Assembly: GCA_040766525.1 (NCBI GenBank)
Contig: JAXGQI010000004.1
Span: 9,869 to 73,868, forward strand
Source of the DNA: Clostridiales bacterium
GTDB lineage: Bacteria; Bacillota; Dehalobacteriia; UBA7702
Length of the DNA: 64,000 bases
Direction of reading: 5' to 3'
Part shown: positions 5,113 to 43,446 of the stretch, piece after piece
How the letters are laid out: each line of letters begins with the position of its first letter
Numbering within the stretch: the stretch's first letter is position 1
Position numbers and translations under genes: made by a program
The notes under the pieces: generated by a model
Database searches by the model: none
What the model was told of the DNA's origin: nothing
The model's input: only the letters and a program-made list of their open reading frames with translations

Positions 5113-5246
5113 TAATGAAGCGGCTTTTCTCGCTATGTAAAGCTAACGAAAACCTATTATTCGGCAAACCGCTGAACTGGATAAAAAGCTCCCAAGGCAA
5201 AGTAACTTTTACCGTCTGCGAAAAACGGACATTGAAAAGAATCAAA

Positions 5247-6500
5247 TGGTCATGGTATAATAAACTGACAGAAAAGAAAAGCGCGGAAAGGCGGAAAGGG
5301 AGTTCGAAGCCGGTAAAACGAGCAGTATATGACAAGCAATTTAAAGCTGCTGCAAAACTGGCACAAGGAACAATCAATGGTTACGCAAACAGCCATTGAT
5401 CTGGGAATCAGCGCAGTAGTCTGCAGATGGATCAACGAATATGATGAATATGGAGAAAGTAAGTGCTTCAGGCATGGGAACGCACTTTTTGTAACTCTAC
5501 GTATGAAATCAAGAACTACAAAAGCAAATTGATGATTTAAAAAATGGAGAACGAAATACTAAAAAAACTCCAGGCCTTCTTGAAAGTAAAGAATGTGTGA
5601 GGTTCCAGTTTCTAAAAGAAAATCAAAAGAAGACAATATTCAGAAGGAACAAAATTTTGGAAGAAGATCTCACGCAGCGGTTAAGCTATGATTATCTGAA
5701 ACGTCGAAAAGTAAACGTGCGATTGAAATGAAAGTGCTATCGGAAATGATCGAAGACATTTTCCATGAAAACAAAGGGCGTTATGGTGCAAGGCGTATAC
5801 AAAAGGTATTGGAACAAGAATATCAAGCGTCAAATCAAAAGAGTTTCCCGCTTAATGAGTGAACATGGTTTAATTGAAAAAAGGGACGCGAAAAATTTAT
5901 CGGTATCAGGCAAACAAAAACGCTTATGATGAAAAAGAAAAATATCCTTAATCAAGTATTCAAAGCAAATGAAAGAAATCAGATATGGGTCGGCGACATC
6001 ACATACATCCCAACAAAACACGGTTGGCTTTATTTGGCTGTTTTCATTGATATTTTTCTCGTGTTGCAACGGGATGGGCTATGGATACCAGAGTTCGTGT
6101 GATATATTGGCTTTACCGGCACTTAATCAGGGGCCGTGTTGGCAGAGAACATCCCACAGAGGGATTGATCATTCATACAGACCGGGGATCCCAATATGCT
6201 ATCTCAGCTTTCAGTCTGCGTGTATCTGTTACGGATTCCGACAAAGTATGAGTCGTAAAGAAATCCTTATGACAACGCAATTATGGAATCGTTCACCGTA
6301 CTTTTAAAAGAGAGCTTGTTCAGGATGCAAAATATGACAACCCTGAACAAGCTCGCATGGATATCTTTAAATATATTGAGACTATTACAATACTAAATTC
6401 AGACATCTATTCGGCCCTCAATTGGCTTTCTCCAACTCAATTTGAGGCCCAGTATGTTTAATTAACCTTAATTCTCTGTCCATTTTTCTTGACCTTTCCA
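5247..6500 (+). mobile_element. IS3-family insertion sequence (about 1.25 kb); transposase reading frames heavily disrupted
   Basis: OrfA-like HTH (VTQTAIDLGISAVVCRWINEYDEYGE). OrfB-like DDE motifs ([47 protein letters not shown]) scattered over all three frames. Imperfect roughly 30-bp terminal inverted repeats starting TGG at 5247 and 6500. Confidence 0.7.
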
Positions 6501-7235
6501 GTTAGGGTCTTCTTTTCCCGTCCTTTTTATTTCGGGGCAGTACATTTCACCTTTTGTACTGCCATTGGGGGCTTCGTTTATAAAACCTTCGGCAATCGGA
6601 TTTGCCCCACAACGATCAATCGAGAGATTTGCCTTTTTAGACCTTAGGGGACTTTAAGAAATGGCGACGAAAGTCGCCTACAAGCCGCTCTATATCCTGC
6701 CGAAATGCCTGGCAAGCATCGAGAAAGGCAGCGCTCCGGTGTGAGGAAGGAACCATGACCCCGGCCGGTCTCCCGATTGATCAGGAGAATCCAAGATTTC
6801 TCCTCCACTTTATTTAAGGATTACGCCTTTACTATAGGCCATACCCATCGCTTCTGCCGTTTTTAAAAGCAGGAACCGCTTTTGCACGCCTTTCAGGAGA
6901 CTGGCAATCCCGGGCCTGAATTCACCAAAACGGTCCCCGGTATAATGCACAAACGAAAACCGTACTCCAAATCCTTCATGGGTCCACCTCCTATTGCCTC
7001 CGTACCAATATCTTTATATATTCCGATTCCCCTCTTGCCGTTTCTCCTGCCGGAATATTACAATTATTCTCCATATTTGTGTAAGAATATCCCATTCTCC
7101 TTCACAACGGCAGCCCAAGCAAGATTTCAGCGCCGATTCGCCAAAAACTTCTTTGTTTAAGCACAAAAATCTCATAATTCGACCTGCTCAAAGCGATGCA
7201 AGCCAAAAGAGAGCACGGCCTTTCCCCCGAAAAAC

Positions 7236-8990: not shown

Positions 8991-9938
8991 ATGTTAAAAA
9001 CACCGCTTTGCGAATTATTGAACATTGAATACCCCATTCTCCAGGGAGGTATGGCTTGGGTTGCCGACGCCGATCTTGCCGCTGCCGTCTCCGAAGGCGG
9101 TGGACTAGGCATCATCGCGGCTATGAATGCGGGCCCCGACTGGCTCCGTGGAGAAATCCGCAAAATCAAAGAGCGGACGAAGAAGCCTTTTGGCGTCAAT
9201 TTTATGTTAAAAAGCCCTTTCGCTGCGGTGGCAGCGGAAATCTTTGCGTAAGTAAAGGTGCCGGTGGTAACCACCGGCGCCGGCAGTCCCCGCGGCTATA
9301 TGCCGCACTGGCTGGAATCGGGCATCAAGGTAATACCTGTGATCCCTTCCGCAGCGATTGCCAAAGCAATGGAAAAAGCCGGAGCCCACGCCGTAATTGC
9401 CGAAGGGACCGAATCCGGCGGCCATATCGGCGAACTCACCACCATGGCCTTAGTGCCCCAGGTGTGCGACGCTGTGGATATTCCGGTGATCGCCGCCGGT
9501 GGAATCGGCGACGGCAGAGGCCTCGCAGCCGCATTGATGCTCGGGGCGGTGGGAATCCAAGCAGGTACCCGCTTTTTGACTTCCACCGAAGCCAATATCC
9601 ACCCCAACTATAAAAAGAAGATCATCAAAGCCTCGGATATCGATACGATTGCGACCGGCAGAAGGCTGGGGCATCCCGTCCGGGCTTTGAAAACCAGTTT
9701 TACAAGAGAATTCCATGTCAAAGAATTCGATCTTTCCGTATCCAATGAAGAGTTGGAAGCCTTCGGAACCGGGGCTTTGCGCCTGGCGGCCGAAGTGGGA
9801 GACGAAAAGAACGGTTGCTTCATGGCAGGGCAGATTGCCGGCATGATCCATGAGGAAATGCCCGCAGCCGCCATCATTCAACAACTGTGCCAAGAAGCGG
9901 AAGCATTATTAAAGGTGGCTGATCAATGGGTAAAATAG
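8991..9938 (+). CDS. fabK: Enoyl-ACP reductase II (FabK, nitronate-monooxygenase fold) interrupted by an in-frame TAA at 9249-9251
   Basis: ORFs 8991..9251 and 9258..9938 are in the same frame. Sequence reads ...GVNFMLKSPFAAVAAEIFA*VKVPVVTTGAGSP...; the stop falls where FabK proteins as I recall them have Glu (GAA). Confidence 0.8.
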
Positions 9939-19940: not shown

Positions 19941-21326
19941 ATGAAGAAATACTTAACCCGTTACGGAGATAACTATGCCGGTTATATGAGTGAATCCGAC
20001 ATCAGGGCCGACATCGAAAATGGGGTACAAGACGCAGCGGACCGGGGAAAAATTCCGCCGTTAAGTGCGGAAGATATGGAACTCTTATTTGAGATCATCA
20101 CTTCCCCGCAAAAGCTCGTTTCCGTCGAACCGGGAAAAGAAGTCGTCGTCTCTTTTGATGCTGGAACCTTAAAACTACCTGTTAGAAACGGCATCCCCAT
20201 GGATCGTCTCCAAGCGATTTTGACCCAGGAGCGGGCTTTGGCTTCAGACAGTATTGAACTGTGCCATGTGGATTACAGTTATAAACCGGTGAAAGCCATC
20301 ATCAGCGAAGAACGGCAAGCGATGGAACAGGCTCAGCTGATGACAACATTGCCGCTCCTCTACGGCGCTATGCCCAACCTCGGGCTCTACACAAAACCCG
20401 ATGGCCCCGTAGGAAACTGGTCGGAATTATTACCGGCAGGGAAAATCGATGAAGCAAGAGAAGCCCAGGATGAAGCTATCCAACATGCGATCAAAGATAT
20501 CGTCTTTGTTGCCTCGAATATGATTGAGAGCGGTGCCGACGGCATCAACCTCGACACCGTAGGCGCTTCCGGCGATGCGGATGTCAAGGCCAGCTTGGAA
20601 GCGGTGCGGATCTTAAAAGGGAAATATCCCCATATCGGTTTTGAAACCGGAATGGCCGGGGAATTCAATATGGGCATGCACGGTCTTTTAGAGATCGATG
20701 GGCAGCGTATCGCCGGTTTATACCCGCATGAGCAGGTGAAAATGGCGGAAAAATGCGGCGTTTCCATCTTCGGCATGGCCGTCAATACCAATAGTTCGAT
20801 GTCCCTCGCTTGGAATCTCGCCCGGGTCTGCACTTTTGCCAAAGAAGCGGTACGGGTAGCAGAAATCCCCGTCCATGCCAATGTCGGCATGGGGGTCGGC
20901 GGGATCCCTCTATCCATCATTCCCGCAGCCGACGCCGTATCCAGAGTGGACAAAGCGCTGGTGGAAATTGCCCATGTCGACGGGTTGTAGGTAGGCGCCG
21001 GAGATACTTTCAGGATGGCGGTCACCCATGAAGCCACCGCCGGAATGGGCGGCATCCGGGCAGCGGGAGACCTCGTCTTCCGGATGGAACTGGCCAAAAT
21101 GAAAATCGATCAAGCCAAAGCTTTTGTTGCGGAAAAATTGCATGTTGGCGTGGAGGACCTCGCCGATTGCGCCGTAATGAAAGATTTGAGAGAAGAATTG
21201 AATATCGGCACCACACAAAACCGGCCCAATGCCGGCGTAGGCATCCAAACGAAATTCCGTATCGCTGAGATTATGGGAATCCCCATCAACAGCGTTGAGA
21301 AATTCAAAAAAGAAGCTGGAATATAA
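19941..21326 (+). CDS. mtbB: Dimethylamine:corrinoid methyltransferase with in-frame UAG (pyrrolysine) at 20988-20990
   Basis: ORFs 19941..20990 and 21015..21326 are in the same frame. Sequence reads ...[50 protein letters not shown].... As I recall it, Methanosarcina MtbB reads VDGI-Pyl-IGVGDP...[14 protein letters not shown], collinear on both sides of the UAG. Confidence 0.85.
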
Positions 21327-21343: not shown

Positions 21344-22815
21344 ATGGGTCTCAGAAACGATAGAGCCGGATATCAGCAACTTAGCGGCTTTGGAATCAAT
21401 ATTTTTAGCGAAGATGAACTCTACGCCCTCCATCTATCCACCTTGGAGGTCTTACAGGATGTCGGTATCCGCATTAACGCAGCGGACGCCAGAGAAGCCT
21501 TAGCAGCGGCAGGCGCCGTGGTCGATGAAAAAAACCGCATCGTCCATTTCCCCGGCTGGCTCGTAGAAGACGCGATTCGCACAGCGCCGAAGGCGGTTCT
21601 CTTCGCCGGCAGAAATCCCAAAAATGATTATATATTGGAAACCAACCGCGTGGGCTTTACCAATTTCGGTGAAGGCATCATGGTCAATGACATCTATACC
21701 GGAGAATACCGGCGCAGCACCAAAAAGGATACGGGGGACGCCGCTCGCTTAGTGGACGCTTTGGACGCCATTGATATCCACGAAAGAGCCCTTTCCGCCC
21801 AAGACGTACCGGCTCCCATCGCCTCGCTTCACGAGGTTGAAATCAATATCACCAATACTTCCAAACACATCGCCCAAGGCTGTAGCGGCAAAAAGAACCT
21901 GCAACGCATCTACAAAATGATGTGCAAAATTGCAGGTTCCGAAGAAGCCTATCGGCAACGCCCCACCTACAGCACCATCACCTGCCCGATCAGCCCCCTG
22001 CAATTGGCGCCGGAAAGTACCGACGTCATCATGGAGTCGGCTCGCCTCGGCGTACCGATCACCATTATCTCCATGGCCTTATCCGGCGGCACCACGCCGG
22101 TAACGCTGGCAGGAACGCTGATTACCCATAATGCGGAGGTTTTGGCGGCAATTGTTCTTTCCCAAGTCACCAAAAAAGGCGCCCCCATCGTTTACGGCAG
22201 TTCCACCACAATCATGGATCTGAAGTATACGACCTCCCCTGTGGGCTGCCCGGAATTGGGAATGATCAATGCGGCTGTTGCGAAAATGGCGCAGTTCTAT
22301 AACCTCCCCAGCTGGGTCGCGGGCGGCTAGGCAGACAGCAAAATCGCGGACGGCCAAGCGGCGCACGAAAAAACCGTCACCGCTCTGCTCCCGGCATTGG
22401 CAGGCGCCAATGTCATCTATGGGCTGGGCATGTTGGAACTCGGTATCACTTTAGATTTCGCGCAGCTGGTTATCGACAATGAAATCGCCGCCATGATCAA
22501 ATGGGCAGTCAAAGGAATCGATGTTGATGATTATGAAATGGCTGTTCATGTGATCAAGGAAGTCGGCGTAGCCGGAGAATTTATCACCCATCAGCATACC
22601 TATGACAATTTCAAGGCTGTACAATCCAGTACCCGCCTCTTTGACCGGCAGATGCAGGAAGGCTGGGAGGCTATGGGAGGAAAAGATTTGCTGGAAAGAG
22701 CAACGGAACGAGCAAAATACATTCTGGAAAATCATAAACCGGACCCGCTCCGCATGGAGCCGCCGCTTATATGGCAGAGATCATCGCGGAAGCCAAAGAG
22801 GAAGAGAACCTCTAA
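21344..22815 (+). CDS. mttB: Trimethylamine:corrinoid methyltransferase with in-frame UAG (pyrrolysine) at 22328-22330; additional apparent frameshift near 22745-22755
   Basis: ORFs 21344..22330 and 22397..22915 share a frame. Sequence reads ...[47 protein letters not shown].... The likely true C-terminus (HGAAAYMAEIIAEAKEEENL, stop at 22813-22815) is in another frame. Confidence 0.8.
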
Positions 22816-22893: not shown

Positions 22894-22996
22894 ATTGATC
22901 AAGTCGGTAAGATGAGAGCAACGGCCAACAAACCAAAGACCCTGGACGCATGGCGTATCGACATACGCTGGTGGTCAGGGGCTTTGGTTTAACAAC
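22894..22996 (+). repeat. Structured repeat / candidate ncRNA, copy 1
   Basis: ATTGATCAAGTCGGTAAGATGAGAGCAAC... then a long hairpin AAACCAAAGACCCTG-GACGC-A-[GCGTAT cgac ATACGC]-TGGTGGTC-AGGGGCTTTGGTTT. Homologous to 24641..24765 and, with compensatory stem changes, to 42892..43011. Preceded by a small hairpin at 22861-22887. Confidence 0.6.
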
Positions 22997-23162
22997 AGAA
23001 ATGTTTTTTGACTGCTGCTTCAGGAAGAATATTGGCAAAATCCGTACTTGACTTTGCCGCTAAAGAAAAAAGCGGCAAAACAGGGTTTTTCTCCTATAGC
23101 TGGAATATTACTATTGTAATATTTTTAGAAAACATCGAACAGAAAGGAAGGTCGCTATTGAG

Positions 23163-24566: not shown

Positions 24567-24609
24567 CCCCTGGAATAACGCAAACAAATTTGGTAAGAAT
24601 AAGACAAAA

Positions 24610-24636
24610 AGAGGAATTGCTTATTGCAATTCCTCT
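24610..24636 (+). terminator. Stem-loop after the SSS gene (weak terminator; also the 5' hairpin of repeat copy 2)
   Basis: AGAGGAATTGC-ttatt-GCAATTCCTCT, but no adjacent T-run. Its left arm is repeated at 24792-24808. Confidence 0.3.
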
Positions 24637-24640
24637 TCAG

Positions 24641-24765
24641 ATTGTCGATAAAGTCGACAAGATGGGAGACACAAGATAAAGGCCTAGAGCTAGGAAAAAC
24701 AAAGGCCCTGGACGCGTGGCGTATCTAAATATACGGAAGCGGTCAGGGGCTTTGGTTTGACAACG
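24641..24765 (+). repeat. Structured repeat / candidate ncRNA, copy 2
   Basis: ATTGTCGATAAAGTCGACAAGATGGGAGACAC... then ACAAAGGCCCTG-GACGCG-[GCGTAT ctaaat ATACG]-GAAGCGGTC-AGGGGCTTTGGTTTGACAAC. Right arm identical to copy 1. Confidence 0.6.
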
Positions 24766-24790
24766 CTATCGGCTTTTGTCTGCAGTCTCA

Positions 24791-24831
24791 AAAGAGGAAT
24801 TGCTTATTGAATAAGCAATTCCTCTTTTTTC
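24791..24831 (+). terminator. Rho-independent terminator immediately 3' of repeat copy 2
   Basis: AAAGAGGAATTGCTTATT / AATAAGCAATTCCTCTTT long stem followed by TTTTTT. Confidence 0.7.
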
Positions 24832-28284: not shown

Positions 28285-28359
28285 TGGTGGGCCCACCTGG
28301 GATCGAACCAGGGACCGACCGGTTATGAGCCGGGGGCTCTACCGCTGAGCTATAGGCCC
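28285..28359 (-). tRNA. tRNA with anticodon CAT (Met, or Ile2 if lysidine-modified), CCA-encoded
   Basis: Reverse complement is GGGCCTATAGCTCAGCGGTAGAGCCCCCGGCTCATAACCGGTCGGTCCCTGGTTCGATCCCAGGTGGGCCCACCA (75 nt). It folds as a cloverleaf with a 7-bp acceptor stem, anticodon loop CTCATAA and T-loop GGTTCGATCC. Confidence 0.9.
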
Positions 28360-42229: not shown

Positions 42230-42649
42230 TCATTCTTTCTCTAGTTTGCCTTTTCTCCCGAAGGATCTTACCAAGAGTAAACCACCACTGAATCCGGCTA
42301 AAACTTCCACCGACAACGGAGATTCTAGCAAATAAAAAATCAAATCAGGAAAAGGGACAGCGGAAAAAACTGTCATATACAAGACAGGCATAAAGGCAAG
42401 AATAAGAAGAAAAAGTGCAAAAATAAAATGAACGGGCTCAAAGACAAAGGATTTCCCCTTTTGCGCAAAAAAACAGAAGATATGGTCAAGGGAAAAAATT
42501 AAAGCCCCCAAAAATGAACTGAAAACAAGAAGGATGCTTACCGGTAAAGAAGAGTACAAGGATTTATAATAAATATTTAATTGATACATAAACAGAGAAA
42601 CGACAATGATATAAACAAAAAATGTGAGATGAAAGAAAAATCTTTTCAT
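42230..42649 (-). CDS. Hypothetical membrane protein (AT-rich gene)
   Basis: ORF 42230..42697 trimmed to ATG 42649. Four hydrophobic segments; no recognisable family. Confidence 0.55.
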   Translation of the reverse strand: MKRFFFHLTFFVYIIVVSLFMYQLNIYYKSLYSSLPVSILLVFSSFLGALIFSLDHIFCFFAQKGKSFVFEPVHFIFALFLLILAFMPVLYMTVFSAVPFPDLIFYLLESPLSVEVLAGFSGGLLLVRSFGRKGKLEKE

Positions 42650-42891
42650 GGTATAAACAGCACCTCCCTGACGATTTAGGAATGATATTAAAAACAATAT
42701 TAAGTTTCATTTCAAGAGTCATTCTCTTGTACTTCTATTCGTAAAACCACTTTTTTAGAAATATATTCTATTTCTTAAATAATAACAAATAGATAAAAAA
42801 TGTCAATTTGTCATACCTCACAAACAATGAACCTGTATAGATAAAGTTTCAAAATAAATCAAATATATTGCAGCTTTTGCAATCGCCTGAG

Positions 42892-43011
42892 ACTGTCAAG
42901 AAAGGGTTTAGAGCAAGGCGCAGAAAAACCGCAGGACGCGACGTGTACAATGACGTACATAAGCGGTCTGCGGTTTTGCTGGAACATAGCACTAAGCACT
43001 TTATTGACAGT
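42892..43011 (+). repeat. Structured repeat / candidate ncRNA, copy 3 (divergent, compensatory stems)
   Basis: ACTGTCAAGAAAGGGTTTAGAGCAAGG... then AAAACCGCAG-GACGCG-[TGTAC aatgac GTACA]-TAAGCGGTC-TGCGGTTTT ...TTGACAGT. It has the same conserved GGACGCG / AAGCGGTC junctions as copies 1 and 2 but different, still complementary, stems. Confidence 0.55.
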
Positions 43012-43016
43012 TTCAA

Positions 43017-43045
43017 AAGCCCGCCATAGGCGGGCTTCGTTTTGA
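43017..43045. terminator. Bidirectional rho-independent terminator (ends rplM-rpsI on the minus strand; also directly follows repeat copy 3 on the plus strand)
   Basis: AAGCCCGCC-ata-GGCGGGCTT with T-runs on both strands. Confidence 0.8.
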
Positions 43046-43053
43046 ATTCTCTT

Positions 43054-43446
43054 TTAACGCTTGGAGAACTGGCTTGCTTTACGGGCTTTTTTCAGACCGT
43101 ATTTACGCCGTTCTTTCATTCTCGGATCTCTTGTCACAAAACCTGCCGCTTTCAAAGCAGGCCGTAATTCAGGATCAGCTTCAACCAAAGCACGAGCAAG
43201 ACCTAAGCGGAATGCGCCGGCTTGACCGGAAGTACCGCCGCCTTTAACTCTCGCCATGATATCAAAACGAGCAGTGGCGTCCGTCAATTCCAAAGGTTGT
43301 TTGACGACCATAACCAAAGTTTTCTTACCAAAATACTCGTTCAATGGCATTTTATTGACTTCGATATTGCCTTCACCCGGGGTGATCCATACTTTTGCGA
43401 TGGCATTTTTCCGTCTACCGGTGCCGTAAAATTTTACCTCGGCCAT
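43054..43446 (-). CDS. rpsI: 30S ribosomal protein S9
   Basis: 130 aa; ends ...[12 protein letters not shown]. Confidence 0.95.

Follow-up and report, generated by a model that had tools for sequence, protein, structure and literature searches.

Organization of the locus

The window, that is, the whole stretch of DNA analysed here, comprises 64,000 nt (positions 9869–73868 of contig C34) of the 1.58-Mb, 52-contig, 67% complete assembly of a Clostridiales bacterium. Its Rfam matches include PYLIS_2 (mtbB) and PYLIS_3 (mttB), plus a tRNA gene on the minus strand (20988–21087, 22328–22427 and 28288–28359); the source organism is a pyrrolysine-using Clostridia-type bacterium. The region of interest lies between rpsI and a gene for a 155-aa protein (42230–42697), both on the minus strand, as the initial annotation had noted, and contains what was described there as the divergent third copy of a folded element. 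The other two copies in the window are located downstream of mttB (copy 1) and of the transporter gene that follows it (copy 2). The features discussed below are as follows, types A and B being the two subfamilies of the element.

22910–23020, plus strand: copy 1, a degenerate type-A element downstream of mttB (nhmmer, 55.9 bits)
24638–24789, plus strand: copy 2, a full type-A element (CAGATTGTCGAT...CTGCAGTCTC; nhmmer, 138.3 bits) with a 31-nt flanking direct repeat
42779–42806, minus strand: promoter-like site TTGACA-16-TATTAT with an extended -10 (promoter scan, 11 of 12 matches), intact, to the left of the element and serving the 155-aa ORF
42867–42888, plus strand: small hairpin, AT-rich, that overlaps what may be a degenerate remnant of the left terminal module (comparison with the B consensus)
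42889–43016, plus strand: copy 3, a type-B element body forming a long imperfect hairpin with the 5' foot GAGACTGTCAAG and, as its 3' foot, the right terminal repeat TTGACAGTTTC
42934–42968, plus strand: conserved core, GGACGCG-AC-GTGTAC-aatgac-GTACAT-AAGCGGTC
43017–43047, no strand assigned: bidirectional intrinsic terminator of the rplM-rpsI operon, GC-rich AAGCCCGCC-ata-GGCGGGCTT, bordered by an A tract and, at the opposite end, a T tract (terminator scan)
43054–43446, minus strand: rpsI, encoding ribosomal protein S9 and ending at 43054 (ORF translation)

The base pairing proposed for copy 3 was recovered in full. The outer stem is formed by AAAACCGCAG (42925–42934) and CTGCGGTTTT (42968–42977), the inner stem by TGTAC (42944–42948) and GTACA (42955–42959), and the outermost pairing by ACTGTCAA (42892–42899) and TTGACAGT (43004–43011). 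The junctions GGACGCG (42934–42940) and AAGCGGTC (42961–42968) match those of copy 2 (24710–24744) with identical spacing, and the pattern GGACGCG-N-AAGCGGTC has two matches in the window (24710 and 42934) versus 0 expected by chance. Compared with copies 1 and 2, both stems are indeed swapped in a compensatory fashion, and the element does adjoin a terminator-like hairpin (43017–43037, followed by CGTTTTG). The small upstream hairpin ATTGCA-gcttt-TGCAAT (6 bp, AT-rich) is present as well, at 42867–42883, one base away from where it had been placed. It does not, though, repeat the architecture of copy 2: the upstream hairpin of copy 2 is a duplicate of its downstream terminator, whereas that of copy 3 is unrelated to the terminator.

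The region 42860–43050 is predicted to fold with -82.1 kcal/mol on the plus strand, as compared with -48.3 +/- 3.7 kcal/mol for shuffled sequences (z = -9.2); the minus strand folds nearly as well (-74.7 kcal/mol, z = -7.7). On the plus strand, promoter-like sites upstream of copy 3 are weak, with 9 of 12 matches, at 42754–42783.

Two subfamilies in the source genome

Using BLAST and iterated nhmmer searches, we identified 93 related loci in the source assembly, including 31 full type-A and 36 full type-B elements, the rest being fragments; the covariance model R1 found 75 copies. The consensus sequences are 152 nt (A) and 163 nt (B) long, and individual copies are 85–96% identical. Copies 1 and 2 belong to subfamily A and copy 3 to subfamily B, with its body scoring 123.7 bits on the full B model (nhmmer) and 109.2 bits with R1 and showing 94–96% identity to other B copies in this genome. 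Copy 3 is not a divergent third copy of a single locus: it has an ordinary B body, and the compensatory changes that set it apart are differences between the A and B subfamilies rather than divergence of one locus. A and B are separate lineages of a family that has conserved the hairpin as such and not its sequence, and hence the stems of copy 3 are unlike those of copies 1 and 2.

A full element consists of a left terminal repeat, CAG[A/C][T/C]TGT[C/A]GA[C/A]AAA, a short hairpin, and a long hairpin of ~125 nt whose 3' foot is the right terminal repeat. The ends of the elements are imperfect inverted repeats, in type A CAGATTGTCGACAAAG and GAGACTGCAGACAAAAG, and typical copies have ends of the form CAGATTGTCGACAAAGT...; in type B, a further left repeat (CAGCTTGTCGAAAAACC...) lies outside these, 37 nt ahead of the hairpin. 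Both consensus sequences fold alike, each into a short left hairpin and a long hairpin, and have in common the core, the loops TAGAGCWAGG and GACAAC/GAACAC-GCTAT, and the ends, while all three stem segments differ in a compensatory manner. A small open reading frame, running from an ATG in the 5' loop to a TGA in the 3' loop, was considered and rejected, as its frame shifts between copies. No description of this family was found in our literature search. Apart from the matches listed above, Rfam 15 returned nothing relevant over the whole window at gathering thresholds, and a search of 42600–43200 at E<=10 gave chance-level matches only (the best on the element being 14.7 bits, against a gathering score of 60).

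Most copies are located in the 3' regions of genes, upstream of the terminator, in both orientations relative to the neighbouring genes; as the orientation analysis relied on crude ORF calls (rpsI, for example, was masked by a shadow ORF), it is indicative only. By the same calls, ~18 other copies are likewise flanked by minus-strand genes on both sides, so the gene orientation at copy 3 is not special. These data bear on the possibility that copy 3 is a cis-regulatory leader, a riboswitch-like element or an extended rpsI terminator structure. It does lie directly beside the rpsI terminator, and its long hairpin would form in read-through transcripts, but the genes to either side are encoded on the opposite strand, the ~90 copies have unrelated genes as neighbours, a plain hairpin ends rpsI in the two other genera of the family, and Rfam contains no cis-regulatory match. 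Copy number and distribution largely refute such roles, of which the initial annotation had already thought the leader unlikely and which we find hardly credible.

Hairpin duplication at insertion sites

Alignment of the copies together with their flanks revealed a typical layout, in which the element is preceded by a hairpin X and followed by the same hairpin X and a T-run. Hairpin X differs at each locus and represents the whole local intrinsic terminator. By local flank alignment, direct repeats of 19–40 nt abut both ends of 22 of the 31 A copies and about 12 of the 36 B copies, and the flanking repeat coincides exactly with the local terminator palindrome, e.g. AGAGCTGCTTACGCAGCTCT. Copy 2 is a clean case, with duplicated terminator hairpins at 24607–24637 and 24790–24826. 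Tandems of a B and an A element hold three copies of hairpin X, which implies two successive insertions. The same ends and the same hairpin duplications were found for copies in other genomes of the class (G004, G034, G024), and in Candidatus Limadaptatus one element lies within the arm of another, with a 26-nt duplication. The copies from Desulfobacterota (L033–L111) have homologous ends (CTGACTGTTGAAAAA...) but are flanked by 4-bp YTAN duplications that are identical on both sides and vary between copies (CTAG, CTAA, TTAA, CTAT).

The two subtypes often occur in tandem or nested, one in the arm of the other with a duplication of 24–26 nt (e.g. L072 6328–6664 and 1799–2114); examples of B-A pairs in the source genome are found at C1 19128–19471 and C8 15089–15428. 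Existing elements thus appear to be preferred targets.

The elements also host an insertion sequence (IS). An IS of the IS3 family, ~1.3 kb long, is located in the 6-nt apical loop of type A in 3–4 of its 6 copies. Its sites include C9 23885–25203, C50 65571–66901, C50 23528–24826 and C35 605–1970, and a copy without A halves lies at 5220–6547 of the window. The ends of this IS are TGTACTGCCCCGAAAT... and ...GGGGCAGTACA, with 3-bp duplications (GAG, AAC), and its terminal TGTAC resembles the inner stem of the element. Halves of type A flank three of these IS3-family elements; we considered them as ends of a parent element and rejected the idea, as the same IS occurs elsewhere without them; it has been inserted into A, judging from its own TGTAC... 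ends and the 3-bp duplication inside the A apical loop. This suggests that the IS targets the hairpin apex; IS1397 reportedly inserts likewise in palindromic units of E. coli.

A partner insertion sequence of the IS1182 family

A related genome of the same family, G006, contains 28 copies of the element together with three copies of a 1606-bp IS. The transposase of this IS scores 447.7 bits on the NCBIfam model NF033551, 'IS1182 family transposase' (cut-off 270), and matches DUF772 (PF05598), DDE_Tnp_1 (PF01609) and DDE_Tnp_1_6 (PF13751) above their cut-offs; its homologues carry the NCBI name 'IS1182 family transposase'. The ends of the IS are CAGCCTGTAGACAAAGT and CAGCTTGTAGACAAAATCC (in longer form, CAGCCTGTAGACAAAGTGCC and CAGCTTGTAGACAAAATCCG) and match the left end of A at 14 of 17 positions, the left end of B at 16 of 19, and the right end of A at 14 of 20. 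Just inside the left repeat there is a small hairpin, as in the short elements. Duplicated hairpins, 25 and 28 nt long, border two of the three copies, and the remaining one is at a non-hairpin site with a 6-bp repeat. A 61%-identical IS on a metagenome contig from ENA is likewise flanked by a 29-nt duplicated hairpin, cut from a longer palindrome. In one of the copies in G006 (L126 1342–2931), the transposase frame meets no stop codon within the IS and runs through the right terminal repeat into flanking DNA; the C-terminus of the protein thus depends on the insertion site.

Taken together, these junctions demonstrate that the transposase lineage prefers DNA hairpins, mostly intrinsic terminators, and that both the IS and the short elements end up flanked by two whole-hairpin copies. 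From the junction sequences we infer two strand transfers, which would occur at the two feet of an extruded hairpin or cruciform; gap repair would then copy the hairpin.

No IS1182 transposase was found in the 67% complete source genome. Searches of this genome with DUF772 recovered only an IS5-like element with unrelated ends, and those with DUF4096 and Y1_Tnp recovered nothing; a repeat survey likewise yielded only IS5-like, IS3 and ISL3 elements, whose ends are unrelated. The IS5-like element (five copies; ends GGGCAYCTCTAAAAAC, which do not match) and the ISL3 element (unrelated ends) were accordingly rejected as partners. DUF4096 was also absent from 11 element-carrying genomes. DDE_Tnp_1 was absent from most of the carrier metagenome-assembled genomes (MAGs), which is weak evidence, as ISs assemble apart. 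Homologous transposases are abundant in gut Clostridia, mostly on contigs of 1.5–3 kb, and MAGs rarely contain IS1182-type ISs because these mostly assemble as such separate contigs. With filters off, the central core hairpin was not found inside any of the IS1182 elements examined. The ~1.4-kb duplicated segment at C8 33315–34689 and C12 89799–91189 encodes a glutamate-dehydrogenase-like protein (447 aa; broken in the other copy) and is not an IS.

A different mode of spread would be that of a REP/BIME- or REPIN-like repeat, propagated by a Y1 (RAYT) transposase that has been domesticated, or retained as a site to which host DNA proteins bind. The elements share with such repeats their intergenic location, palindromic structure and frequent tandem pairing of two subtypes, as well as the specific insertion of an IS3-family IS into the apical loop. 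They are, however, 150–165 nt long, with terminal inverted repeats and target duplications, which REPs lack; their ends match those of an IS1182-family IS, and no Y1_Tnp (PF01797) match was obtained in the source genome, itself incomplete, as compared with matches in 6 of 14 control genomes. We regard this origin as very improbable.

Distribution among relatives and in other phyla

Within the class, the covariance model R1 detected the element in 14 of 74 genomes, with species of the same genus having either none or 10–35 copies. Such patchy occurrence fits a mobile element, not a conserved RNA gene. The rpsI gene itself is 73–93% identical to rpsI in 13 other genomes of the class. The initial annotation had proposed that conservation downstream of rpsI be checked in related genomes: in five other genomes of the family, from two other genera (g2 and g3), rpsI is followed by a plain, unoccupied terminator, whereas one congener does contain a diverged element there. 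In that congener (G001; L019 1895–2033), the element scores 36.9 bits and lies antisense to rpsI, in the same place and orientation as copy 3. Its stems and junction are unlike those of copy 3, there is no terminator between it and rpsI, and IS-like sequence is found beyond it. It may be either an orthologous copy reshaped in place or an independent insertion.

We also scanned for the core by exact pattern, which holds ~48 bits of information, so that chance matches are negligible. The core of copy 3 has 55 occurrences in the source genome and is found in MAGs of at least three phyla. It is present in multiple copies in MAGs of at least the following groups: Opitutales, Desulfovibrionaceae, Desulfomicrobium, Thermodesulfobacteriota, Candidatus Limadaptatus and other Clostridia, and Acidaminococcaceae, with 5–48 copies per genome by R1. 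Sister genera of the source genome carry diverged cores. Among 87 loci of other phyla, no neighbouring conserved protein was detected, the top cluster probably consisting of spurious frames through the repeat, and neither the Desulfobacterota consensus nor copy 3 had a match in a plasmid collection. Copies from different genera of Desulfovibrionales are very similar by eye over the whole 160 nt. At one Desulfobacterota MAG locus (L112, ~6240), the core GGACGCG...AAGCGGTC is inverted relative to the arms, an arrangement to be expected if the apex can be flipped when the two arms recombine with each other.

Covariation in the central hairpin

The central hairpin recurs in multiple copies and with strong covariation in Clostridia, Negativicutes, Desulfobacterota and Opitutales. 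In a cross-group alignment of 36 sequences, 92.4% of the cells are paired, as opposed to 67.5% in shuffled alignments, the covariation score is 0.622 (0.182 when shuffled and 0.10–0.18 with slid partners), and 21 of the 29 pairs show compensatory changes. Stem sequences are thus free but paired, while the core and two internal loops are nearly invariant across groups and the core columns are invariant in alignment A2; since the cross-phylum sequences were retrieved via the core pattern, the core's invariance is in part due to ascertainment. The initial annotation had named stems that vary among the copies of the genome without staying complementary as grounds for doubting the fold; the outcome favours the structure, with stems remaining paired across the phyla.

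Of the 36 sequences, 29 retain a G-T pair at the foot of the inner stem, and in the source genome the variation at paired positions is about half that at unpaired ones; both observations hint at a constraint on single-strand structure. Within this genome, G-T mismatches outnumber A-C mismatches on the plus strand in subfamily A (54 versus 24) but not in subfamily B (71 versus 68), and across phyla the exceptions in the variable stem comprise G-U and A-C in roughly equal numbers, the one conserved G-T pair aside. The mismatch pattern thus singles out no one transcribed strand, and the structure may matter as DNA, in the form of a cruciform or a single strand, during mobilisation. Readings of the loops as a K-turn (C/D-like GATGA/CTGA) or as a CsrA-type GGA loop, made by eye, were dropped, since the key bases are not conserved in all subfamilies.

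These data also bear on whether the family is primarily a functional structured RNA, present in multiple copies either as a stand-alone sRNA or as a 3'-UTR module that stabilises or processes transcripts, with its loops serving as protein- or RNA-binding sites. The strong cross-phylum covariation, the invariant asymmetric loops with the conserved G-U pair, the excess of G-T over A-C in subfamily A, and the location of most copies in gene 3' regions upstream of a terminator would all be expected of such an RNA. Against it, the target duplications are locus-specific, the terminal repeats are shared with an IS, and congeners have 0 versus 30 copies; moreover, the minus strand folds almost equally well, the G-T/A-C asymmetry is missing in B and across phyla, and copies occur in both orientations relative to neighbouring genes. 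For copy 3 itself, a dedicated sRNA gene has no Rfam match and no convincing plus-strand promoter, only the weak sites mentioned above, and its distribution among close relatives is patchy. Overall, we consider a primarily RNA-level function unlikely. Of the two alternatives in the initial annotation, a stand-alone small RNA and a structured intergenic repeat, it is the latter that stands, the repeat being a copy of a mobile family, and the sRNA gene is unsupported.

A probable IS-derived mobile family

The evidence is best explained by a family of MITEs (miniature inverted-repeat transposable elements) with two subfamilies, mobilised in trans by a DDE transposase of the IS1182 family, with 42889–43016 of the window being a subfamily-B copy and most likely an immobile relic. 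We assign this reading a probability of about 85%. The case for a MITE family is based on the direct repeats formed by hairpins, the ends that match an IS1182-family IS, and the patchy occurrence.

Copy 3 is an incomplete member. It is missing the 18-nt GTTTT-ctcac-AAAAC segment, the 37-nt left module and the upstream hairpin duplicate; no flanking direct repeat was detected, the best alignment of its flanks (9 nt) being at chance level, and of the terminal repeats only the right one is recognisable, with no outer left repeat. As in typical copies, the right end (GACAGTTTC) directly adjoins the local terminator, here the A-tract and hairpin of rplM-rpsI. On the left, CAGCTTTTGCAATCGCCT at 42871–42888 may be a degenerate remnant of the left terminal module (consensus CAGCTTGTCGAAAAACCCT), a weak resemblance in which ~13 of 19 positions agree by eye. 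With the left-terminal module and the duplication missing, copy 3 is probably immobile. It may have lost these parts or may never have possessed them; a single deletion of most of the left module together with the hairpin copy on that side would account for both absences. Its mobile origin is suggested, at the level of sequence, by the 94–96% identity to typical B copies. Beside the rpsI terminator, copy 3 thus most likely persists as an immobile relic that does little or nothing in its own right.

That the central hairpin, absent from the IS, is nevertheless the element's best-conserved part across phyla is not accounted for by the MITE model on its own. One speculative answer, which we think rather doubtful, is that this hairpin (GGACGCG..GYGTAY-N6-RTACR..AGCGGTC, with the loops around CAAGG and YTGACR) is a selected module rather than IS-derived filler and has travelled with IS1182-type ends through at least three phyla, its structure kept and all its stem sequences turned over. 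The module could be required for mobilisation, as a folded single strand or cruciform that recruits the hairpin-seeking transposase or a universal host factor; alternatively, it could work as RNA within the 3' UTRs that receive the element. If either version were true, this MITE would be defined by a structured nucleic-acid motif rather than by its terminal repeats.

The interest of these findings lies in the family, that is, in whole-hairpin duplication by an IS1182 lineage and in the conserved structured core that the IS lacks, rather than in copy 3. For genome annotation, a MITE-family label, and not one of riboswitch or sRNA, is appropriate for the ~90 strongly folding intergenic hairpins of this genome and for the dozens found in many anaerobes of gut and sediment. 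The family offers clean and recurrent natural cases in which whole terminator hairpins are duplicated by an IS1182-type transposase and its MITEs, and as it also makes 4-bp duplications in another phylum, the structure-directed target choice of a poorly understood IS family is now directly testable. Insertions rewire 3' UTRs, such that a gene is followed by a hairpin, the element, and a hairpin with a T-run; the elements draw further insertions, namely the IS3-family IS in the apex and nested copies, and probably fragment metagenome assemblies.

Comparison with known systems

The known elements most like this family are the IS-derived MITEs of bacteria, which include Correia/NEMIS of Neisseria and RUP of Streptococcus pneumoniae. 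Like these, the present elements are small, non-coding and multi-copy, have terminal inverted repeats in common with an autonomous IS, are in many copies flanked by target-site duplications, fold over their whole length into a long hairpin, and are patchily distributed among related species. Unlike MITEs of the Correia/NEMIS type, they duplicate a whole hairpin of 19–40 nt rather than 2–9 bp, their left end has an extra copy of the terminal repeat outside the hairpin, and their best-conserved part is an internal core that has no counterpart in the IS and recurs across phyla.

For the IS1182 family, ISfinder gives direct repeats of 0–60 bp. Among studied elements, those closest to the partner IS are IS1272 and TnSha1 of staphylococci, members of this family that strongly prefer hairpins, mostly transcription terminators, with little primary-sequence specificity and reportedly cause partial deletion or replacement of the hairpin with no target duplication; in IS1272, the left inverted-repeat region is also reported to be duplicated in tandem (PMC4923244, PMC5678879). 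A review cited in PMC4923244 is quoted there as stating that some IS1182 members target palindromes. The partner IS described here belongs to the same transposase family (NF033551) and likewise prefers hairpins. In contrast to IS1272 and TnSha1, the present IS and MITEs duplicate the hairpin intact, and at non-hairpin targets they are flanked by duplications of 6 bp (one IS copy) or 4 bp (YTAN, Desulfobacterota MITEs).

REP/BIME sequences and REPINs are intergenic palindromic repeats, often paired, which are found at the 3' ends of genes and are associated with RAYT transposases. The present family is similarly intergenic, palindromic, often paired and located at gene 3' ends, and an IS3-family IS inserts into the hairpin apex; it differs from REP/BIME in being much longer and in having terminal inverted repeats, target duplications and an IS1182 partner, and no RAYT was found. 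Finally, in the attC sites of integrons the structure is conserved while the stem sequence is free, and certain unpaired bases are conserved. The present family has no cassettes, integrase or R/L boxes, and the likeness to attC is confined to the mode of conservation, with structure maintained over sequence, which suggests that here, too, a folded single strand or a cruciform is recognised.
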